Below, one piece after another: positions 1-36,749 of a stretch of 36,749 nucleotides of DNA. The position numbers and the translations under genes are program-made. This DNA is from a virus (lineage: Duplodnaviria > Heunggongvirae > Uroviricota > Caudoviricetes), in IMG/VR virus record IMGVR_UViG_2579779084_000014. One strand, 5' to 3'. The number at the start of each line of letters is the position of its first letter. Position 1 is the stretch's first letter. The notes under the pieces are model-generated. The model was not told the origin of the DNA, did not search any database, and was given only the letters and a program-made list of their open reading frames with translations.

Positions 1-1698
1 TCAGGCGATAAGGTCACCGTATTTTTCGCGCAGGCTCGTAGCCTGTTGGGCGTCTGCGGCAAGTTCGCTGCTGTTTGTTGGTGCGCCGGTGTTGCTGTGG
101 GTGTGGTTTGCAGTGTGTGTGGCCAGCAACTGAACCAGATCCAGAATATCAATCAACAACGTCAGCAGATTAAGTCCGGATTTTTCCCGTGAGTCACCGC
201 GACCAATAAATACTGTCGGGGCTGTAAACTCCAGGCCACCGTCCGCTCGGCATGTTCTGCGGCCTCCCACGTTTTCAGTAAGGTCGTGTTCAATCGTGGA
301 TGTAGCCCCTTTGAGTTTAGTCAGCAAATCCTGCGCTACCATCTGGATATGCTCACTGGCTGCGATCGCGTAATGGCCGGTAGTAAGGTGCTCTATTTGT
401 CCTGCCATTAGCTTGCTGGTTCCCAGAACGCTGGTTATATCGTTTGCCTGTACTGTGGTTGTTCTGGTTGTTGTTGTGCGTTCCTCCTGATCGCTGTTAA
501 TGGTTCGCCGGGCTGAATGTTCTCTGATTTGCTGGTCGGTTTCTCTGTGCCAGCTTCCGTCAGCCGTGACGCGCTGAAACACTTCTGCGCGCTGTTGCTG
601 CAGCTGTTCGCCGGGCTTTACATCAGGCAGGTTATGGCCAGCGGGTAAGATTTGCCTGATAACGGGTTTGTCCGGACGTCCTTCAATGTTGGATATTTCC
701 ACGATGGTGCCTGCCGGTGGGTAGGCAAAACATCCCGCCTCACTGCCAGCCATGGGGACGGGGAGCGGTACTGCCGGGTAAACGGGCGTGTCGCTTTTAT
801 CGTTGCCGTTCTCATCAAGCAACTGCACATCGACGGCGTAGCGTGGGCGGAAACTGTCGGCCACATCGCCCAGGGTGGTGGGCTCCGTTGGCGCAATGAC
901 GCGCGCCAGCCGGGTATGTAGCGTACCGCTGGCCAGTTCCGGGAACTGTGTTTCCATTTGTCTGCGTAATGGTGATTTGGAAACAGGGTTACCCGTGGCG
1001 GTAAGGCGCTCCCATGTCAGGGTCATTTTCTCGTTGTTGAGGGCTACACGGGTAATGCGCCCGGCCGGTAGGTTCACGCCCGGTCGCACAGTTTCCATAA
1101 ACATGATGTCGATGCTGTTTCCGCCGCTTTGCCCGAGTGTGTACTGTTGCGGAATATCCGGCATTGTAATACTGGCAAATCGTGAATCAGCTGCGCTTCC
1201 CACAAATACAGAACCGTCCGGCATAGGGTGCCAGACGTAATCGCTGATACTGAATGCTCGCCCCAGTTGGCTGAGCAGTTGTGCTCCGCTGCCGCTGTGG
1301 GTGATGTAGGGAGTTGGTATACTGGCATAATCCGCATCCGGAGTGATAAAAACGATACCGCTTTGTCGCCCCAGATTATCGAGTACCCCCCGCAACGTCG
1401 GGTGTTGCATGGAGCAAGGGAAATCAAAATCCAGCACAGCAGCCGCTTCACGAATAAAAAGGCGACGTGAGCCATTTTCAGCAGGTTGATCGCGCTCAAT
1501 GTAGCCGGAGAAATAGCGCCATGCTTCACCGTCACGGCCGAGATCAATTTGTACCATTGCGCCGGCAAGGCTGTGTTCGGGTGACAGATTGTTAACAGAA
1601 ATGAAGCCACGACCGGCAGCATTCAGGGTAAGAACAAGGTTTATATCGGCAATTTCCACCCGTTCGCCATTAATCATACAGCGTTGTATTAATTTCAT
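1..1698 (-). CDS. hypothetical large protein, C-terminally truncated by the window edge (at least 565 aa)
   Basis: Long uninterrupted ORF coupled to the upstream 191-aa ORF; Thr-rich stretch TTTTRTTTV and His-rich ATHTANHTHSNTGAPT near the window edge; no family recognised. Confidence 0.55.
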   Translation of the reverse strand: MKLIQRCMINGERVEIADINLVLTLNAAGRGFISVNNLSPEHSLAGAMVQIDLGRDGEAWRYFSGYIERDQPAENGSRRLFIREAAAVLDFDFPCSMQHPTLRGVLDNLGRQSGIVFITPDADYASIPTPYITHSGSGAQLLSQLGRAFSISDYVWHPMPDGSVFVGSAADSRFASITMPDIPQQYTLGQSGGNSIDIMFMETVRPGVNLPAGRITRVALNNEKMTLTWERLTATGNPVSKSPLRRQMETQFPELASGTLHTRLARVIAPTEPTTLGDVADSFRPRYAVDVQLLDENGNDKSDTPVYPAVPLPVPMAGSEAGCFAYPPAGTIVEISNIEGRPDKPVIRQILPAGHNLPDVKPGEQLQQQRAEVFQRVTADGSWHRETDQQIREHSARRTINSDQEERTTTTRTTTVQANDITSVLGTSKLMAGQIEHLTTGHYAIAASEHIQMVAQDLLTKLKGATSTIEHDLTENVGGRRTCRADGGLEFTAPTVFIGRGDSREKSGLNLLTLLIDILDLVQLLATHTANHTHSNTGAPTNSSELAADAQQATSLREKYGDLIA

Positions 1699-2270
1699 GT
1701 TTTCCCTTCCTTTTTCACGCTCCCGATGCCAATCCAGTCCAGCCCGGAGCCAATACCATCATTGATATTTTTCCAGAAAGTTTCCTGGGTATTCATTCCT
1801 TTATCCGGCGTCAGCTCACTGCCGTTCTGTGTCTGCTGCTTTGCGATTGTTTTCTGTGAGCCACTGCGTGCCGATGCTTTTTCCGGCACGCTTAATTTTT
1901 CCCTGAGAGTAAAGGTGACCTGCCAGTGCATTTTCCCCTGTTGTTCCGTGGCATCAATGCCACCAGAAAATACCCCCTGTCGCATATTGATTGCCTTCGC
2001 GGTAGCGTTGGCAATGCGATACGTTTTTTTAGCTCCGTTACTTTCTGTTGCCTCCGCAAGCTGAAAAATACGGGTCAGAATAGCTTCATCGTTAAAGTCA
2101 ATAACCCCCGACACGCGCAGCTCTTTAGCCTTGTTTCCCTGCTGAGCGCTCGTGGTGCTGGTTGACTGTCCGGACATATCTTTATCCGGTAGTTGCATGG
2201 TGGCGCTGACGGTGATGTTGCGCAGCAGAATGGCTTCCCCGTCAAGTGCAAGGACAATCATCTGGGTCAT
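1695..2270 (-). CDS. hypothetical protein (191 aa)
   Basis: Co-directional ORF; overlaps the next ORF by 4 nt (ATGA-type coupling). Confidence 0.5.
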   Translation of the reverse strand: MTQMIVLALDGEAILLRNITVSATMQLPDKDMSGQSTSTTSAQQGNKAKELRVSGVIDFNDEAILTRIFQLAEATESNGAKKTYRIANATAKAINMRQGVFSGGIDATEQQGKMHWQVTFTLREKLSVPEKASARSGSQKTIAKQQTQNGSELTPDKGMNTQETFWKNINDGIGSGLDWIGIGSVKKEGKT

Positions 2271-2991
2271 GTAGTGCTTCCCTTAGTGATGAGAGATCAT
2301 CGCCGACGAACAGCATCACAGCTGTAAAAACCCACTCGGGGTGTGGGATGTTTTTTTGTATCAGCGCTGCGGCCTGGCTAAGGACTCCCTTGTAGCAAAA
2401 GCGCCACACCGGGCAAAATTTTTGCCGGAGTGCGGCCTGCTGATCAGCGATTTCCTGTAGAGCTTTATCTCTCGCATTCGCGAACTGACGCAGCTCTGAT
2501 GACAATGTTTCCGGTGATGTGGCAGCAGGAGTAGCTGCCTGTGCAATGGTTGCAGCCAGCGACATGCTGCGAGTGGTCTGTGTCGACAGCATTATCGGTT
2601 CCGGAAGTGATGTTACCGGTCTGGCGGGGATTTGCATTCTGCTGATGGTCAGCGAAAGTTGGCTGGAGATCATACGGGACATTCTCCCTATTTCTGGCAA
2701 CGGAAATGCACCTGAAAATTGTCTGGCAAGCGATAAAAACTCAGCAACAGACGGGGCGCAGAATAACATCGCCACGACGTCTTTTTGTGTATTTTCTGTC
2801 AGATACGGTAAAAGTGCAGACACTGCATTATCCGGACTGAGGTAGCGTCCCGATGGTGTGGTATTCCCTGTATTTACTGACCATGGGTGGAAACAAATCA
2901 TTGAACTGGTGATGTTTATGGGGTGCGGGTGCAGAATTGAGACCGCCCAGTCAGGGCGGTTATTTTTATTGTCTTTCAAATGAATATTCAT
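2242..2991 (-). CDS. hypothetical protein (249 aa; start uncertain)
   Basis: Co-directional ORF with a helical-looking C-terminal half; a GC-rich hairpin lies inside the first 20 codons, so the true start may be an internal Met. Confidence 0.4.
   Translation of the reverse strand: MNIHLKDNKNNRPDWAVSILHPHPINITSSMICFHPWSVNTGNTTPSGRYLSPDNAVSALLPYLTENTQKDVVAMLFCAPSVAEFLSLARQFSGAFPLPEIGRMSRMISSQLSLTISRMQIPARPVTSLPEPIMLSTQTTRSMSLAATIAQAATPAATSPETLSSELRQFANARDKALQEIADQQAALRQKFCPVWRFCYKGVLSQAAALIQKNIPHPEWVFTAVMLFVGDDLSSLREALHDPDDCPCT
2942..2970 (+). terminator. terminator-like hairpin ACCGCCC-AGTCA-GGGCGGT followed by TATTTTTATT (plus-strand orientation)
   Basis: 7-bp GC stem plus T-rich tail; lies inside the 5' end of the annotated 249-aa minus-strand ORF. 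Confidence 0.3.
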
Positions 2992-3023
2992 AGGTGTGTG
3001 AGATATTGCTGGTACTTGCGCGG

Positions 3024-4127
3024 TTACTGTCGGGAGGTTGTGGGTTGGTTATATAACTCCGTTGCAAAAATTATCTCTCCTTCAGTAAATGGGATATCTC
3101 CGTCAGGCTGTGTCGTAAAACTCTGTGAGACAGTCGTCCAGCTGTTTGTGTCAGCCTGCACGTCATTCTCTGTAACTGTTTCTCCTTCATGGCTTCCGCT
3201 TTTTACACTCCAGGCCAGGCAGTTATTGGGGGCGTCCGCACTGCGATAAGTGACAGCCGCCATAACTGCGACCAGATCGCCATTGCTGTTATCTACCGCA
3301 CCAAACGTAACCTGTGCCGCCTCCGGGGACGGTGAGAGCATCAGGTATCCGGCATTACTGTCAGAGGTGTTCAGTCCCGTGACGATATCTTTATCCAGCG
3401 AGTTTTTCGCACTCCCCCCGGTAAATGCGGTTACCGGGCTGTATCTGACCTCAATAGCCCCAAGCAGGGCGGGTTCCGCGCTGTTATTTTTTCCGTATGC
3501 CACTGTTCCACAGTACATATCACCCAGCATTAACGTGCCGGATGCACCTGATGAAAAAATATTGTCACCACTACCAATACTCACCTGAATTTTGTCAGTC
3601 CGGTCATCTGATACATAAAACGATGTATTTCCAGCTAATGAGCGGTTGCAGTACAGACTGGCTGAGACATAGCCGTTTTCGTTTCGCGTTGCGAAAATTT
3701 CATAGTAATAACTGGCTGCTTCATCAGGATACGGGGTTGTAAATGAATAGCCATTAATCCTGATGTGGGATGGCGAAGATGAATATTTCTTTCCCGCACT
3801 TAATGTCAGACGAAATCCCAGCTGTACAGCTGAGGCTTTTAAGTCCGGAAGTGTGCTGTACAGTGTGACATATGAGGGTGTCGTGAAAATCAGCCCCGTT
3901 CTTTCTACAGTATTTACGGCCTGAGTGCCACGACAGACGGATGTTACAGAACCGGACATATCATTGATAAGCGTGACACCGTTTTCGTTCAGTGCTGAAA
4001 TAATATTTGTTGAATAATAGTTCTCGCACAATCCCTCATTCGCCGGAATTTGTCGAAAACTTTCGAGTTTTATAATATTCAAGGTCTGCTTTCCTTTTGT
4101 GTCGGTTAATATATTTCTGAATACCAC
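3024..4127 (-). CDS. hypothetical Ser/Thr/Gly/Asn-rich protein (possible receptor-binding or tail-associated protein)
   Basis: 367-aa ORF 12 nt downstream of the Tfa-like gene; beta-rich S/T/G/N/Y composition; visibly AT-richer than the phage core. Confidence 0.5.
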   Translation of the reverse strand: MVFRNILTDTKGKQTLNIIKLESFRQIPANEGLCENYYSTNIISALNENGVTLINDMSGSVTSVCRGTQAVNTVERTGLIFTTPSYVTLYSTLPDLKASAVQLGFRLTLSAGKKYSSSPSHIRINGYSFTTPYPDEAASYYYEIFATRNENGYVSASLYCNRSLAGNTSFYVSDDRTDKIQVSIGSGDNIFSSGASGTLMLGDMYCGTVAYGKNNSAEPALLGAIEVRYSPVTAFTGGSAKNSLDKDIVTGLNTSDSNAGYLMLSPSPEAAQVTFGAVDNSNGDLVAVMAAVTYRSADAPNNCLAWSVKSGSHEGETVTENDVQADTNSWTTVSQSFTTQPDGDIPFTEGEIIFATELYNQPTTSRQ

Positions 4128-7912: not shown

Positions 7913-7952
7913 GCCGCCAGTCTGGCAGCATGGACAGGTCAGAATCAGGTGA

Positions 7953-7965
7953 GGGTGTTCAGCAC
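7953..7965. promoter_or_regulatory. dyad motif GTGCTGAACACCC (gene-strand sense), copy 1 of 3; upstream of the gp46-48/tail-fibre block
   Basis: In the 54-nt intergenic gap between the gp45-like stop and the gp46-like ATG. Confidence 0.35.
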
Positions 7966-18744: not shown

Positions 18745-19869
18745 TTACTTTTCTCCTGCGTAACGGGCGATATCTTCTGGATCAACGCCCATCATTGAAC
18801 AAATGGCGATATCGATATCGACGTCATCGCCGGTTTTAATCTGCGCCGGGGCCGGTGACGGCGTTTGGGGTGGTTTGCCGCCCGTCTGGGTCTGACTGAG
18901 CGCAACAAGTTTCGGTGCGTTATCCAGCCAGGACTTAAAGCCGTTGATATCGCGGCTGGCGTAATCTTTCGCCCAGTCTTCCTGTGCCGGAAGCAGTCGC
19001 CCGTCAGACAGCGCCGCCTGAATCAGTGCCCCGGCTTCGGCCTCACCGGACTGTTGCGCCAGTGCGGCATAACGCCCCTGAAGTTCTTCGAAGGCAGCAA
19101 GGGAAATGTGTTTTGACGGGTCATAGGCACTGGCTGACAGGCTGGCGATTTGCTCATCTTTCTGATTCAGCAGGGCCAGCAGGCTGACGGATGCCGCCGC
19201 CGTTCCCTGACCGTTCGAAATCATGTCAACGACCTTTTGCAGCTCGTTTTTGATATCTTCCGCCGTTGAGGTAACCGGGAGGTTAAGCATCCAGCGCAGA
19301 CTGGACAGCAAATCGTTTAACAGTTCTTCATCCACTGTTGTGGTCTCCGTTTCAGTTGACAGACTCGCCAGACGGCTGGCCGCAGCCAGCATGACCGCGT
19401 CCATACCGTCCAGCGCCGGGGTATTGGTCAGTGCGGCGTGTAACAGTTCGATGACTTCGCCGCGCCGGTTGTATCCAAATACCGGGGAAATAAATTTGTA
19501 CTCTCCGGCGGCAATCATGGCCGCCGCGTTCTCCGTCCACTCCACACCGATGGCATACAGGCCCGAACCTTCACGCCATTCCACCTGGCTGAACCAGCCC
19601 GCCGCCGGGGCAGGCTTGCCGTTGTTTACGGCGCGCAGCGTCTGATGTTCGTAATCAATGACAAAAGGCGTGGTACGGGCTGCCACCTGTGCGACAAGCT
19701 GCGCGGCCAGTCCGGCAGTCAGCACCCATTTACCGCTTTCGACTTCATCGGTATACGGGCGACCATCCACCGCGCTGAACTCGCCTGCCGGAAACAGCTG
19801 GATTTCGCTGTGGGTTGCTTTAGTAATTTCGAGGCTTAACGCCGCAATGTTCATCTTCATGCGCGGCAT
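18745..19869 (-). CDS. head maturation protease / scaffold (Mu I-like)
   Basis: Mu I-like sequence; start moved to the first ATG downstream of the dyad motif (MPRMKMNIAAL); exact start uncertain. Confidence 0.75.
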   Translation of the reverse strand: MPRMKMNIAALSLEITKATHSEIQLFPAGEFSAVDGRPYTDEVESGKWVLTAGLAAQLVAQVAARTTPFVIDYEHQTLRAVNNGKPAPAAGWFSQVEWREGSGLYAIGVEWTENAAAMIAAGEYKFISPVFGYNRRGEVIELLHAALTNTPALDGMDAVMLAAASRLASLSTETETTTVDEELLNDLLSSLRWMLNLPVTSTAEDIKNELQKVVDMISNGQGTAAASVSLLALLNQKDEQIASLSASAYDPSKHISLAAFEELQGRYAALAQQSGEAEAGALIQAALSDGRLLPAQEDWAKDYASRDINGFKSWLDNAPKLVALSQTQTGGKPPQTPSPAPAQIKTGDDVDIDIAICSMMGVDPEDIARYAGEK

Positions 19870-19901
19870 GATGACGGAAGGGGAACACGGGGTACTGTGG
19901 A

Positions 19902-19916
19902 GGGTGTTCAGCACCC
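19902..19916. promoter_or_regulatory. dyad motif GGGTGCTGAACACCC (gene-strand sense), copy 2 of 3; candidate late promoter for the head operon
   Basis: Intergenic between the G-like and I-like genes; the track's 'start' of the I ORF is the GTG inside this motif. Confidence 0.4.
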
Positions 19917-27758: not shown

Positions 27759-27903
27759 GAGTTTCTCCTGTAAATCTGAGCCACTGACGGCCCGTAAATA
27801 ACACCCTGTCAAAGGCACAGAAGCCTTTTGCAGGGCGCTATCCCTTAAGGTGCCTTGTGGTCTGAGTGGACAGGGTAAACGGTCTGGTGTGGTGGGTACT
27901 GCT

Positions 27904-27922
27904 GGGGGTGTTCAGCACCCCC
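27904..27922. promoter_or_regulatory. dyad motif GGGGGTGCTGAACACCCCC (gene-strand sense), copy 3 of 3; candidate late-promoter activator site upstream of the lysis cassette
   Basis: Intergenic; shares GGGTGCTGAACACCC plus flanking CAGTACCC with the copy at 19902-19916. Confidence 0.4.
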
Positions 27923-27945
27923 GGCAGGTTGATTATCTGGATGGG

Positions 27946-28233
27946 TTAAAGGGAAGCGAGTTTTAATGGTGGCTTATAACATGCCCGCGCCAGCAGGTTA
28001 GCTCTTTCCACGGCATTACGCATTTCCCGTTCTGCGTCAATCATTCTGTTTACGGCTGACAGCACTTCATCATGATTCGTTACTGATTCCGGGCTTTGGG
28101 CCTGTTTCGCCAGGTAACTGGATAAATTGCACATTTCAGCATGTCGGCGACGGGCTGCATCCCGGGCCTTGTCTGAAAATGCGGTATATTCACCGAGTAC
28201 TGCATAGTCGATATCGGTGTCAGAACGCATCAT
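27946..28233 (-). CDS. hypothetical protein (95 aa)
   Basis: Co-directional ORF; no motif recognised. Confidence 0.4.
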   Translation of the reverse strand: MMRSDTDIDYAVLGEYTAFSDKARDAARRRHAEMCNLSSYLAKQAQSPESVTNHDEVLSAVNRMIDAEREMRNAVERANLLARACYKPPLKLASL

Positions 28234-28260: not shown

Positions 28261-28728
28261 TTAATCAAAAAGCCCCACCTGGGTGGGGCTTTTCAGCGAA
28301 GTCTGTTTTTGTCGTCGGTGTATCAGCTGCCATGCGTACCGGTCTGAAATCCCGTAGCGGGGACAGAGCAGTGCCAGCGCCTGCCGGTGTGAGCATCCGT
28401 CTTTTACATGCTGCTGTAAATCAGCCATAAAACGGGTGTTACGCAGGGCACGTAACGCATGATCACAACGGGGAATGTAAAACGGTGCACCGCCAAGAAA
28501 GCGGATCAGTTTGTTGATTTCGTCTTCGGTCAGCACATCATGTAACAGGGCATGGACACCGCCGGTGCGTCCGGCGTGTGCGCCGGTTTTACCGCTTAAC
28601 GTCACGCCACCAAAAGAACGGATTAACCGGGTCAGGGCGGGGAAGCCAATCACGCTAATCAGTTGCTGTACGGAATCGGGCAGCAGTGCCTGCGCATCGC
28701 GAAGATCTGTTTCACTGAAGGTCTGCAT
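28261..28728 (-). CDS. Mor/C-family transcriptional activator (middle/late gene activator)
   Basis: 155 aa; C-terminal HTH-like CPRYGISDRYAWQLIHRR resembling the Mor/C family; position between gemA and lysis genes. Confidence 0.65.
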   Translation of the reverse strand: MQTFSETDLRDAQALLPDSVQQLISVIGFPALTRLIRSFGGVTLSGKTGAHAGRTGGVHALLHDVLTEDEINKLIRFLGGAPFYIPRCDHALRALRNTRFMADLQQHVKDGCSHRQALALLCPRYGISDRYAWQLIHRRQKQTSLKSPTQVGLFD

Positions 28729-28757
28729 GATGGCGTCTCCGGTAGTAACTTACTGTT

Positions 28758-28763
28758 ATTATA
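28758..28763 (-). promoter_or_regulatory. candidate -10 hexamer (TATAAT) for the Mor/C-like gene
   Basis: Exact TATAAT on the minus strand about 30 nt upstream of the ATG at 28728, downstream of the terminator; GGAGA SD follows. Confidence 0.3.
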
Positions 28764-28786
28764 GCCATACATGATCGCCTGTACAG

Positions 28787-28817
28787 ACCACAAAAAAGCC
28801 CCTGCAAGGCAGGGGCT
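28787..28817 (-). terminator. rho-independent terminator between gemA-like and Mor/C-like genes
   Basis: Perfect 9-bp GC-rich stem AGCCCCTGC/GCAGGGGCT with a 3-nt loop, followed on the minus strand by TTTTTTG. Confidence 0.55.
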
Positions 28818-28823
28818 GATTCT

Positions 28824-29237
28824 TTATTGTTTACGTGCTGCTCTGGCTCGTTTTCTGGCGTCTTTTGTCAGCGCCACCATCACCCCGAACAGCTGATCAT
28901 CTGTCAGCCATTCGATCACATGTTGCTTATACATGTGAGATGCCAGTCCTTCCGCATACGCCCAGGAACGACCGGCATCAGCCAGCAACGCCTCAATTTT
29001 GGATAATACCGATTTTCTGCTCATTGCAACACGGGGGCGGCGACCTTTACCGGCGGGCGCTTTGCGCGGAAATCCCTGTTCGTGCATGTATTCCCGGATG
29101 ATGCGCAGTTCATCGAGATTGCAGCGTGTGGTGCTGGTTTTACCGGTCAGGCGGGCCAGCGTCTGACGATAAAGGGCATCATCCCACCCCAGATACGCCT
29201 GACCGGCTTTAATGGCTCCGATCATCTTTTTCAGCAT
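28824..29237 (-). CDS. gemA: GemA-like regulatory protein
   Basis: 137 aa from the internal ATG at 29237; MLKKMIGAIKAGQAYLGWDDALYRQ...RKAPAGKGRRP pattern matches the GemA family (by recollection); lies immediately upstream of a Mor/C-family gene as in Mu. Confidence 0.65.
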   Translation of the reverse strand: MLKKMIGAIKAGQAYLGWDDALYRQTLARLTGKTSTTRCNLDELRIIREYMHEQGFPRKAPAGKGRRPRVAMSRKSVLSKIEALLADAGRSWAYAEGLASHMYKQHVIEWLTDDQLFGVMVALTKDARKRARAARKQ

Positions 29238-29487
29238 GTTTGTTATCCTCAAAACGCACGGTAAAACGTGAAACACCAATCCCCGACAGGAACGCGGCGG
29301 CACGGTCAAGAGACAGCCACGTCTTGTAATCGCCACGGCGTTCCTGTAGAAAATAGGACACCCCGGCGCGGCGATTCACAGCGAAGAGGTGATACACACC
29401 ATCGAACCGCTGCACGACGAACTCATCCACGCCACCGCTTTCAGCCTGCTGCCGGAAGGCTGCCATTCCGATTTGTTCAATTTTCAT
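29209..29487 (-). CDS. hypothetical early protein (92 aa from MKIEQIG)
   Basis: Track ORF trimmed to the internal ATG; the track's N-terminal 12 codons are a translation of an operator-like palindrome. Confidence 0.45.
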   Translation of the reverse strand: MKIEQIGMAAFRQQAESGGVDEFVVQRFDGVYHLFAVNRRAGVSYFLQERRGDYKTWLSLDRAAAFLSGIGVSRFTVRFEDNKHAEKDDRSH

Positions 29488-29490
29488 AAT

Positions 29491-29537
29491 GACCAAAACA
29501 TTACTTTTGGCAGACCAAAACACATGTTTTGGTCTGC
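29491..29537. promoter_or_regulatory. operator-like array: 13-bp-arm palindrome GCAGACCAAAACA-CA-TGTTTTGGTCTGC plus a third direct GACCAAAACA copy
   Basis: Read directly from the sequence; ends 3 nt upstream of the ATG of the 92-aa gene (29487). Confidence 0.4.
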
Positions 29538-31873: not shown

Positions 31874-32065
31874 TTAATGCGGTGCTTTCAGTGTTTCGAT
31901 TTTAACGAAATAAGGCTCGACATTAATTTCAACCACACAACCACATTTAAAATCTCTGGCAGGTGAAACGGTTTTCACCACACGGCCACCACGCAACGCC
32001 GGATGTGCAGTGTGCATGAAGCGAGTCCCTACCGGATACTGCTTATTAAAGTTCTTCGCATTCAT
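31874..32065 (-). CDS. hypothetical small protein (63 aa)
   Basis: Co-directional ORF overlapping the previous gene end; no motif. Confidence 0.35.
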   Translation of the reverse strand: MNAKNFNKQYPVGTRFMHTAHPALRGGRVVKTVSPARDFKCGCVVEINVEPYFVKIETLKAPH

Positions 32066-32279
32066 GGCGTGGCCTCCAGCCCTTCAGGTGAGCGTTAGCG
32101 CAGAACTCCGCACGATGTTCAGCCCAGATGCGGCGCAGGGTGCTACACGGGCTTTGCGCTGCCTTGCGCCACAGTTTTTCTGCCTCATCATAATCGCCGC
32201 GTTGTTCTGCTCTGGATGCACCCAGCGAATACGCCGCGCAACGATTTCCGGCTCTGTACTCTTTGATATCCTGATGCAT
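32046..32279 (-). CDS. hypothetical small protein (77 aa from internal ATG)
   Basis: ATG 1 nt after the upstream gene's stop (coupled); track ORF start would overlap the upstream gene by 89 nt. Confidence 0.4.
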   Translation of the reverse strand: MHQDIKEYRAGNRCAAYSLGASRAEQRGDYDEAEKLWRKAAQSPCSTLRRIWAEHRAEFCANAHLKGWRPRHECEEL

Positions 32280-34706: not shown

Positions 34707-36749
34707 TTAACGGTTGTTTGTGCCGTTTTTCTTTAAATTGCGCTCGCGTTCAGATGCGAATAAATAAAGTTCTTCTTTTTCCTTTTTCTCCGGGCGCTCC
34801 AGACCAAATCCAAAATTAAACTCAGATTTCTGCGTAATAGCCGGGGTAAGCTCGCGTTTAGCCTCTTCGATTTTCTGCGTGGCCCGTGCAATGCGGCCTC
34901 TGACGCGTTTCTCCAGTTTTTGCTCGATAACTGGTTTAGCGAAGGCATCAACCTTATTGCCGTTCCAGATGGCATCGCAGATATAAGAGCCATCAGCCCG
35001 ACGGACAATGACACTGTTTGCGTCATGAATATCGTAACTGACCCTGACTTCATTCCCGTGCTCTGCGGCCAGTTCATACGAGTAATAAATATTGTTGAAT
35101 AACTGAATTTCCCCGCGAAATGTTTTGCGCGTCACTTCCGGCCTGAACATTTCATGCAGTTCTTCCTGCGACAGAAAATCAATTTCAACATTCTGCTCTT
35201 TTATCAGTTTCCGGCGATACGCTGCCGGGCTGTAATATTCGCCATCCTCTTTGCGGGGAAGGCTGCTGTGTGGCCGGTTGTTATAGCGTCTGACCTCCAG
35301 CTCTATGGCGGCCATCAGTTGCTCAAAGGTGGGGATTTCATCCCTCGCCTTAACCTGCCGTTTTGTCAGTTCTTTCCCTTTGTGGGTGGCCTTAATGGCC
35401 GACTGCATAATCCGTTGCTGCATCATTACGGTTTCCTTGTCTGCATCCTTTGCGCAGTACGTCTGGAAACTCAGTGCCACGTCTTTGGGTATTCCTTTGT
35501 TTGCCCGTTCTATTACCCCGCGCCCCTGCGGGTTACCCGGTATCCCCGTGTGATGCTCCACACCCAGCCGGGGCAGAATCCCGGTAATATCGGCATCAAG
35601 CACCCGGTTTTTTTCGCCGCCCCCGTTATCGGAATAATAAATCAGCGGTATCCCGTGCTGTGCCATGCCGTAACGCAACGCATCAGCAACGGCTATCACG
35701 TTTTCCGACAGGGACAGTGACCAGCCCACAACAAAGCGCTGCCCCGCATCCATAACCAGCGTCACTTCTGGCCGGAAAATATTGCCGGTCAGGGGGTTAA
35801 ACGCGGTCATTTTCATACAGTGACCATCCCCGACCCATACCGCATTAACCGGTAATGATGTCCACTCGCGCCGCACAAAGGGATTGAGCGAACGCCAGGC
35901 TGAACCTGTGGAGCGGAAACGCTCCTTAACAATCACCGGGACGCTGCTTAACACTCGTCTTACTGCGTGAACTGAAGGCAGTGCCGCCAGCATTCCCGCA
36001 TCATTCGCGTGTTTCTCATGCCACCAGGCTGAAAACTCGCGATAAGCGTATTCAACGGTCGGGCGCTTCCATGAGCGATAGAACATAAAGAAATCGCTCA
36101 GCCACCAGACCTGCTCCCACGGAGTTCCCTTATGATGACCGGGAGCCAGTAACGCCAGTAACTGATTGGCATCACCGCGCGCCATCACCCAGCTGGAGTA
36201 CCAGCTATCCAGGCTGCCGGTGCTGACACCGGTTCGCTTTCCCTGACGTGCATTTGCAGTATTCGCTGCTTCGATAATGCGGTCAGGTAACGCCCCCATG
36301 CGCACACCATCAACGATGTGCTTTAACGCGGCCTTCCTGGTCATTCCGGCGTATTCACGCAGTTTATGCACTTCAGTAGCCAGCAATATCCGCGCATCAG
36401 CAATGGCCTTTTGCTTGTCGGTCAGTGCCTGGACTTCGCGTAATGCCAGTTCCGGGCATTTGACCATCACTTCCAGTTCATCGCGAACGGCGACGTTTTT
36501 AACTGCCTTCTGCTCAACCACGGCGGGCAGTTGTGCATCTTCCAGGACCTGATGAGTCAGGCGCTTACGTAAAACTTTCTGCGCTTCAGCGGGCAGGCTG
36601 TCGATGTGATACTCGAATGCTTTTGTGCCTTCACGCTTGCGCTTCCATTCCGGGTGCGTCTCTGTGATCCGATTGAGCGTCCATCGCACCCCCTGAACTG
36701 TACCGGGCAAACGAGGAAGACCGGCCAGCTCATTGGCTGAATAAAACAT
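34707..36749 (-). CDS. A: Mu-type DDE transposase (MuA-like); ORF reaches the window edge so the true start may lie beyond 36749
   Basis: 680 aa. N-terminus (ANELAGLPRLPGT...) resembles the MuA N-terminus; catalytic-core-like motifs VWVGDGH and YYSDNGGG; sits directly upstream of a MuB-like gene as in Mu. Confidence 0.85.
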   Translation of the reverse strand: MFYSANELAGLPRLPGTVQGVRWTLNRITETHPEWKRKREGTKAFEYHIDSLPAEAQKVLRKRLTHQVLEDAQLPAVVEQKAVKNVAVRDELEVMVKCPELALREVQALTDKQKAIADARILLATEVHKLREYAGMTRKAALKHIVDGVRMGALPDRIIEAANTANARQGKRTGVSTGSLDSWYSSWVMARGDANQLLALLAPGHHKGTPWEQVWWLSDFFMFYRSWKRPTVEYAYREFSAWWHEKHANDAGMLAALPSVHAVRRVLSSVPVIVKERFRSTGSAWRSLNPFVRREWTSLPVNAVWVGDGHCMKMTAFNPLTGNIFRPEVTLVMDAGQRFVVGWSLSLSENVIAVADALRYGMAQHGIPLIYYSDNGGGEKNRVLDADITGILPRLGVEHHTGIPGNPQGRGVIERANKGIPKDVALSFQTYCAKDADKETVMMQQRIMQSAIKATHKGKELTKRQVKARDEIPTFEQLMAAIELEVRRYNNRPHSSLPRKEDGEYYSPAAYRRKLIKEQNVEIDFLSQEELHEMFRPEVTRKTFRGEIQLFNNIYYSYELAAEHGNEVRVSYDIHDANSVIVRRADGSYICDAIWNGNKVDAFAKPVIEQKLEKRVRGRIARATQKIEEAKRELTPAITQKSEFNFGFGLERPEKKEKEELYLFASERERNLKKNGTNNR

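Follow-up and report, generated by a model that had tools for sequence, protein, structure and literature searches.

Bacteriophage Mu runs the textbook three-phase transcription cascade, which is built on two paralogous activators, Mor and C. In Mu, the mor stop codon is followed by a hairpin with its T-run, AAAGCCGGTTAATCCGGCTTTTTTT, and then by the middle promoter Pm, and the middle operon (t9.2, Pm, E18-E19-gp20-C, Plys) places the gene for C just 5' of the lysis genes. Pm has no -35 hexamer; in its place Mor binds a 16-bp element with its centre at -43.5 (PMC4390567). The beta sliding clamp is required for the activity of both Mu C and Mor, and clamp motifs, an N-terminal Qx[D/E][L/M]F and/or a C-terminal QPDLF, occur across the family (PMC12867686). 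Simpler arrangements are also on record: SuMu, Mannheimia phage 3927AP2 and phiMhaMu2 have lys directly after mor, without C (PMC4553209), and the annotated order in SuMu and MP22 is gemA, one 'late transcriptional activator' and the lysis genes. We provide here an analysis of the corresponding locus in a Mu-like prophage of E. coli, IMG/VR record IMGVR_UViG_2579779084_000014, whose 36,749 nucleotides are the whole stretch of DNA analysed and are called the window below. The window carries one gene of the Mor/C family, and on balance we favour a scenario in which this sole activator does the job of Mu C from a cassette composed of a terminator (T1), a promoter (P(mor)), the gene and a second terminator (T2), and acts on three late promoters (W1 to W3).

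Membership of the Mor/C family is supported at the sequence level by profile matches, by the detection of Mu Mor and Mu C with a profile of the protein's homologues, and by the linker. The predicted protein scores 28.3 bits against Pfam PF08765 Mor (gathering cut-off, 24.9) and matches PHROG 836, 'late transcriptional activator', over residues 6 to 154 (1.2e-42). The conserved beta-strand linker between the dimerisation and DNA-binding domains (GGxQxYIP in the family) reads FLGGAPFYIPRC in the window, HLGGGQVYIPRG in Mu Mor and FLGGRQFYIPCG in Mu C, so that the GGAPFYIPRC of the window protein contains a motif common to both Mu activators; Y84, I85 and C88 are invariant in 19 relatives, and P86 and R87 are at least 90% conserved. 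As far as sequence comparison goes, the protein is nearer to Mu C than to Mu Mor, with 26% versus 18% identity and phmmer scores of 14.0 versus 7.8 bits, and its best solved-structure match by sequence (using the profile of alignment A1) is Mu C in a transcription complex (PDB 9l0x, E = 0.004). It shares with Mu C the linker pattern GGxxFYIP and, putatively, a C-terminal helix-turn-helix region, and its C-terminus, QVGLFD, fits the beta-clamp-binding motif QxxLF and resembles the clamp motif QPDLF of C; a C-terminus of this type occurs in 72 of 135 family members. It differs from Mu C, however, in overall identity, which is only the 26% just given, and in that no N-terminal clamp motif was found in the window protein.

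Single-sequence and profile searches of all six-frame open reading frames (ORFs) of at least 20 amino acids revealed no second Mor/C paralogue in the window or in the flanks of related genomes. The flanking DNA was taken from related genomes and comprised both prophage ends together with host flanks: locus L001 contributes the repressor, ner and 10 kb of host sequence, and loci L040 and L041 span the region past the tail-fibre end. We used as queries Mu Mor, Mu C and the window protein singly, as well as a profile of 135 homologues (a library search gave 422 clusters). Mu, included as a control, returned two matches, and the profile, with the Mu proteins left out, still detects both Mu C (28.9 bits, 1.5e-10) and Mu Mor (20.7 bits, 5e-8) and is therefore sensitive enough to find a Mu-like paralogue. 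This prophage returned one match, in agreement with the first-pass annotation of the window, which had reported a single Mor/C-like gene and had suggested a profile search of all ORFs for a second.

The gene appears to form a transcription unit of its own. The 95-nt gap between gemA and the activator gene holds T1, a 9-bp stem with 7 GC pairs, a 3-nt loop and a U6 tract, whose hairpin (centroid) has an energy of -17.7 kcal/mol; the surrounding 41-nt stretch folds at -18.2 kcal/mol (z = -3.0 versus shuffles). T1 lies at about -66 to -40 relative to the predicted start of P(mor), near 28751. P(mor) is a predicted sigma-70-type promoter: its TATAAT (28763..28758) is exact and stands 29 nt 5' of the ATG, and its -35-like TGTACA matches at 4 of 6 positions. 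At the other end of the unit, the last ten codons contain T2, a 12-bp stem with a U5 tract (-20.6 kcal/mol, z = -4.0), the 3' arm and U tract of which are encoded by the G-L-F codons of the C-terminal QVGLF. The first-pass annotation had described a strong rho-independent terminator separating a gemA-like gene from the activator, an exact TATAAT about 30 nt before the ATG, a GGAGA Shine-Dalgarno sequence and, from these, a separate transcription unit, and every one of these elements is borne out (Table 1); T2 was missing from it.

The support for P(mor) comes from its conservation across lineages, not from its scan score. The 28-nt pattern TGTACA-N3-GATCA-N5-GG-N-TATAAT is present in exact form in 18 IMG/VR contigs (IMG/VR scan), in all of them just 5' of the activator gene. 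The two hexamers and GATCA are invariant across lineages, and the bases between them and the leader vary. Identity of the activator to the window protein in the P(mor) lineages spans 54 to 83% (83% in the E. coli-like L036; 65% in L034, whose protein cluster is named Salmonella enterica by its source; 54% in the Edwardsiella locus L004). T2 is kept in the same four lineages as the promoter block, and in Edwardsiella it shows a compensatory A-U to G-C change that costs two residues (Thr to Ala and Val to Ala). The T1 position behaves differently: the relatives have at least five unrelated hairpin stems there, each ending in a T-run directly next to the unchanged promoter, irrespective of the preceding gene, which in the IMG/VR contigs is gemA or encodes one of several signal-peptide proteins unrelated to one another. 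Because the stems vary and the promoter does not, we read the hairpin as an RNA terminator and not as a protein-binding dyad. The idea, taken from the layout of Mu Pm, that T1 is a dyad bound by the activator was rejected, since its stems differ across lineages and are unlike the CTGAAC box described below. Given that the feature adjoining T1 is a conserved sigma-70-type promoter, T1 looks like the end of the early operon, a counterpart of Mu t9.2, rather than a gate.

Three late promoters are predicted on the gene strand, 5' of the lysis genes (W1), the head protease/scaffold gene (W2) and the gp46-like baseplate genes (W3). The box CTGAACACC occurs 6 times in the window against 0.93 expected, with three of its four gene-strand copies in intergenic gaps; for the full pattern box-N30-A-N3-T, 0.08 occurrences are expected and 3 are present, namely at W1 to W3, all of them on the gene strand. 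Each of the three has CTGAACNCC at about -50 to -42 and a -10 hexamer 30 nt further on. In relatives of many genera a box of the form (cca/gtg)CTGAAC(C/A)CC(t)TCA(a)C is likewise found 5' of the lysis genes, and alignment of 24 sites on the box, drawn from many Enterobacterales genera, shows that the box itself is nearly invariant, as are, at fixed spacing, an A 40 nt and a T 44 nt from its first C. The two bases are the second and the sixth of a hexamer nAnnnT (TATACT, TACACT and AATACT, for example). If the hexamer is read as the -10 element, the box falls at about -50 to -36, with its centre near -43 and no -35 hexamer. Such a geometry, an upstream element centred near -43 in place of a -35 hexamer, is that of Mor/C promoters in Mu, and its position and conservation suggest that the box is probably the activator's site. 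The three predicted promoters also stand where Plys, PI and PP stand in Mu, 5' of lysis, head and baseplate genes, though the box CTGAACNCC is unrelated to the Mu sites. A literature search for the CTGAAC box sequence was unproductive.

Several further observations concern these sites. The -10 element ends 7 nt short of the annotated ATG at W2 and 6 nt short of it at W3, and neither gene has a Shine-Dalgarno sequence; with so short a gap, the head protease/scaffold and gp46-like baseplate transcripts are predicted to be leaderless. The fourth gene-strand CTGAACACC box (3366-3374, minus strand) lies inside a tail-region gene (4127..3024) and has no -10-like hexamer at the conserved spacing. The W1 box sits within an inverted repeat (27899-27927, minus strand) with 13-bp arms, worth -21 kcal/mol as RNA and lacking a U tract, and the symmetry of the head and baseplate boxes is much weaker than that of the lysis-promoter box.

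A single activator is the usual condition among Mu-like phages and has already been published. By tblastn, relatives of the window protein occur in 136 phage records, one match each, among them the Pseudomonas D3112/MP22/JBD group, SuMu, Mannheimia 3927AP2, Klebsiella ST405-OXA48phi1.1 and VW-6B. These single-activator phages (D3112/MP22/JBD, SuMu, 3927AP2 and ST405-OXA48phi1.1) resemble the window in having one Mor/C gene between gemA and the lysis genes and differ from it in sequence, their activators being 31 to 41% identical to the window protein. In MP22 and most enterobacterial relatives, furthermore, the activator overlaps gemA and lacks both a promoter and a terminator of its own, in contrast to the window gene. 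The first-pass annotation had taken the single activator to indicate a simplified or rewired early-to-late switch; this was right in outline, in that there is one activator, but the arrangement itself is neither unusual nor new. In the Haemophilus phage SuMu (L038), the activator is bracketed by terminator-like hairpins (2491-2507 and 3085-3117), with a promoter-like TTCACA-18-GACAAT upstream, so that the insulated layout recurs outside the Enterobacterales.

Among 30 related loci in bacterial genomes, most have one copy within about 2.5 kb, and four (L006, L008, L011 and L013, from Xenorhabdus, Photorhabdus and two Morganella) have two copies in series; as these are close relatives, both layouts are present in the clade. 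A neighbour-joining tree places the window protein together with the second copies of the four two-copy loci and some gemA-coupled single copies; the protein is 49 to 54% identical to the second copies versus 34 to 36% to the first copies. Three layouts can be distinguished. The commonest, seen in most relatives, is an activator that abuts or overlaps gemA without signals of its own; the four two-copy prophages have a CTGAAC-box promoter and a hairpin 5' of the second copy; and in the sub-lineage of the window the order is terminator, TGTACA-16-TATAAT, gene with internal terminator, orf95. The two-copy loci (at about 1400-3100 of each) begin with a first copy that overlaps gemA, followed by a secreted protein of 172 to 174 amino acids and then by the CTGAAC promoter, the hairpin and the second copy, the two copies being 36 to 38% identical to each other. 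They represent a Mor-to-C-like cascade within this clade. The two-activator prophages share with the window the CTGAAC box at their late promoters; they differ in keeping a gemA-coupled first copy, whereas the window has one copy behind a sigma-70-type promoter. Small signal-peptide or membrane proteins of several unrelated families (93 to 175 amino acids) lie between gemA and the terminator in L034, L036, L043-L046, L049, L050 and L059, their start overlapping the gemA stop in the contigs checked; this slot is empty in the window, and we found no homology between the accessory proteins of two-copy and one-copy prophages.

Set beside Mu, the locus shares the position of the activator gene just 5' of the lysis genes and a unit that begins right after the early-operon terminator. 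It differs in having no Mor paralogue in the window, in a promoter that, unlike Pm, has a -35-like hexamer and no activator dyad, and in being monocistronic and ending in a terminator inside the coding sequence, unlike the Mu middle operon. At P(mor) the -50 to -36 interval is occupied by the 3' arm and T-run of T1, the sequence of which varies by lineage, and a Mu-type middle promoter lacking a -35 hexamer, with a dyad at -43.5, is not seen. Since P(mor) has a -35-like hexamer and no activator box, it would take the place of the Mor-dependent Pm of Mu, with no equivalent of Mor needed. The succession of variable genes and hairpins before a constant promoter, in a Mu-like order, is accordingly best read as a Mu-type middle unit that no longer needs Mor. 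With one activator in its own unit, the two-step cascade of Mu (Mor, Pm, C) is not present as such: the window appears to lack both of its defining features, two paralogues and an activator-dependent middle promoter, and retains a third Mu-type feature, an early-operon terminator directly 5' of the promoter driving the late activator.

In the scenario that we favour, T1 would stop the early operon after gemA (or, in relatives, after the accessory gene), and T2 would end the activator transcript and shield orf95 and the lysis genes from read-through. The activator would then bind (g)tgCTGAAC(A/C)CCnTCAnC, centred at about -43, at the late promoters of the lysis, head protease/scaffold and baseplate genes, and would recruit sigma-70 RNA polymerase to these -35-less promoters with a -10 of the form nAnnnT, probably aided by the beta sliding clamp through the C-terminal QVGLF.

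Table 1. Coordinates of the activator cassette, its neighbours and the predicted late promoters in the window
Feature	Position	Strand	Basis or remark
Transposase A	36749..34707	minus	Followed by B, small early genes and gemA
gemA-like gene	28824..29237	minus	Pfam GemA PF06252, 3e-18; final early-operon gene here
T1, intrinsic terminator (predicted)	28791..28817	minus	AGCCCCTGC-CTT-GCAGGGGCT then TTTTTT
P(mor), predicted sigma-70-type promoter	28758..28785	minus	TGTACA-16 bp-TATAAT, 10/12 matches
Near-palindrome TGTAC-N4-GATCA, possible operator	28772..28785	minus	Overlaps -35 hexamer and spacer; contains a GATC (Dam) site
Shine-Dalgarno sequence GGAGA	28736..28740	minus	Read from sequence; 7 nt 5' of ATG 28728
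Mor/C-family late transcriptional activator, 155 amino acids, sole copy	28261..28728	minus	Pfam, PHROG and profile searches
T2, intrinsic terminator (predicted)	28261..28294	minus	GAAAAGCCCCAC-CCAG-GUGGGGCUUUUU; within last ten codons (KSPTQVGLFD, stop)
orf95	27946..28233	minus	phrog_7152, 1.8e-56
W1, predicted late promoter, lysis genes	27872..27915	minus	CTGAACACC box 27915..27907, 5' of holin; -10 TACCCT
W2, predicted late promoter, head protease/scaffold	19868..19911	minus	CTGAACACC box 19911..19903; -10 CATCAT; ATG 19860
W3, predicted late promoter, gp46-like baseplate genes	7919..7962	minus	CTGAACACC box 7962..7954; -10 CAGACT; ATG 7912

A number of points weigh against this scenario. 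The promoter scan taken by itself gives 1 site against 1.8 expected in a 2.3-kb region, which is within chance. The structure model of the activator returned generic helix-turn-helix matches only. The binding of the activator to the CTGAAC box would follow from position and conservation, and in most relatives the box shows no clear dyad. With its perfect -10 and fair -35, P(mor) should moreover have activity in lysogens, to which a late activator would do harm, so that a form of control beyond what we see is needed. The phage's own regulators do not readily supply it: among prophages that share an identical P(mor), the repressor is 43 to 93% identical where it can be aligned (its N-terminal part is unalignable in two contigs) and Ner is 42 to 100% identical. 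With P(mor) unchanged across this variation, neither protein is likely to be its regulator.

Several candidate controls of P(mor) fit poorly or were rejected. Action of the repressor or Ner finds no matching sequence among the early operators, in addition to the variation of both proteins. A LexA box, CTGT-N8-(T)CAG, fails at its last half, which is CAT in the window and CAC in the closest relative where CAG is needed; a CRP-like site, TGTnn-N6-TCAnn, would be centred near -26 with poor half-sites; and the CTGAAC box that autoregulation would use is absent 5' of the window gene, being present far upstream in Edwardsiella and in the two-copy prophages only.

The firing of P(mor), and its timing, we infer. 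The timing of late expression would most likely be set by control of P(mor) and not by the terminator, whether by way of the near-palindrome TGTAC-N4-GATCA or because gene dosage rises during replicative transposition. The two half-sites of the near-palindrome, TGTAC and GATCA, are invariant and its 4-nt centre varies (AGGC, ACCC, AGGT or AGCC); neither the window nor L001 has a second copy of the site, and nothing similar was found in the early operator region. A bolder version of this idea is that the Mor step has been replaced by another switch, the near-palindrome with its Dam site being the operator of some regulator or a sensor of replication or methylation that, in place of a Mor/C paralogue or the phage repressor, sets when the sole activator is made, and with it at least two leaderless late operons; we regard so specific a replacement as doubtful.

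The first-pass annotation had proposed that the activator is gated by termination or antitermination. In such a model, P(mor) is weak or incidental, the activator is made by read-through of T1, by leakage or phage antitermination, and T1 sets the delay between early and late expression. In its favour, T1 lies precisely where gemA gives way to the activator, the promoter match by itself does not exceed chance, and the activator abuts or overlaps gemA in most relatives as simply the last early gene, which makes expression from the early operon the common state. Against this, no antiterminator homologue or relevant Pfam match was found among the early ORFs, and an Rfam scan of the region returned weak, terminator-driven matches only, all below gathering scores. 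T1 itself is a strong hairpin with a U6 tract that adjoins the conserved promoter, and the persistence of the hexamers and GATCA despite differing leaders and upstream genes is hard to explain for an idle promoter. We consider gating unlikely.

Alternatively, the two-step logic of Mu could be kept by a hidden first-step regulator, an early protein outside the Mor/C family that switches P(mor) on, as an activator or anti-repressor, at TGTAC-N4-GATCA. The conserved half-sites around a variable centre overlap the -35 hexamer and spacer and look like an operator, P(mor) must be silent in lysogens, and many early ORFs are without known function, one of them called an ANR-family regulator by the NCBI Prokaryotic Genome Annotation Pipeline (PGAP). 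No candidate protein has been linked to the site, however, the prophage has no second copy of it, and the repressor and Ner vary where the site does not. We hold this explanation, too, to be improbable. Very unlikely is a replication-coupled timer, in which a weakly constitutive P(mor) suffices once replicative transposition raises copy number and the supply of DNA-loaded clamps for a clamp-dependent oligomeric activator, with the spacer GATC perhaps adding sensitivity to hemimethylation: the clamp requirement of Mu C and Mor, the clamp motifs across the family, the C-terminal QVGLF of the window protein and the conservation of the spacer GATC in all four lineages speak for it, but it is inference only, its single GATC is located in the spacer whereas promoter methylation effects are documented mainly for GATC within hexamers, the comparable promoter-like site of SuMu has no GATC, and basal activator expression would risk expression of the lysis genes in lysogens.

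The insulated cassette acting on boxed late promoters, which remains our preferred reading, shows how the Mor/C family may be wired where only one activator exists. It offers a testable map for widespread enterobacterial Mu-like prophages, with the early-operon end, the activator cassette and three boxed late promoters marked on it, and this map could aid the annotation of late promoters and the prediction of prophage inducibility. It also suggests a simpler system in which to study how Mor/C proteins activate transcription with the clamp. As the layout with a single activator is already known, this is an incremental gain. What is new are predictions from sequence: an insulated cassette, with its pair of terminators and its conserved sigma-70-type promoter, located where a variable early-operon slot ends; late promoters marked by the CTGAAC box; and, likely, leaderless head and baseplate transcripts.

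The long ORFs of the window are all on the minus strand and follow a Mu-like phage order; 3' of gemA come the Mor-family gene, a holin, an M15 endolysin, DUF1804, a DNA methyltransferase, the terminase, head genes, tail genes and tail fibres. The activator region is 100% identical to prophages of several complete E. coli genomes, in which PGAP labels the genes 'regulatory protein GemA', 'Mor transcription activator family protein', hypothetical protein and holin. Among complete records the nearest is NZ_CP086627.1, which an early-region indel of about 624 bp sets apart from the window, and the PGAP start of gemA in the near-identical record L001 maps to ATG 29237. The small conserved gene orf95 has no Pfam match and no similarity to Mu E18, E19 or gp20; homologues lie 3' of the activator in L004, L034, L036 and L037, and in every relative of the clade that was examined, including those with a gemA-coupled activator. 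Positions 1-4082 of the window, the tail-fibre end, are more than 99% identical to a different prophage location in other E. coli genomes, and the remainder matches a uspA-adjacent Mu-like prophage; the tail-fibre module is thus mosaic.

Two features of the early region may be regulatory. A 77-amino-acid early gene (about 32046-32279, minus strand), labelled 'ANR family transcriptional regulator' by PGAP in the near-identical record, shows weak TPR-like matches only in Pfam and is a possible early regulator. A 155-nt early-region gap contains, at 29490-29537 (minus strand), the palindrome GCAGACCAAAACA-TG-TGTTTTGGTCTGC together with a third copy of TGTTTTGGTC, just 5' of a 92-amino-acid ORF (29487..29209) that precedes gemA, and it looks like an operator or internal control site.

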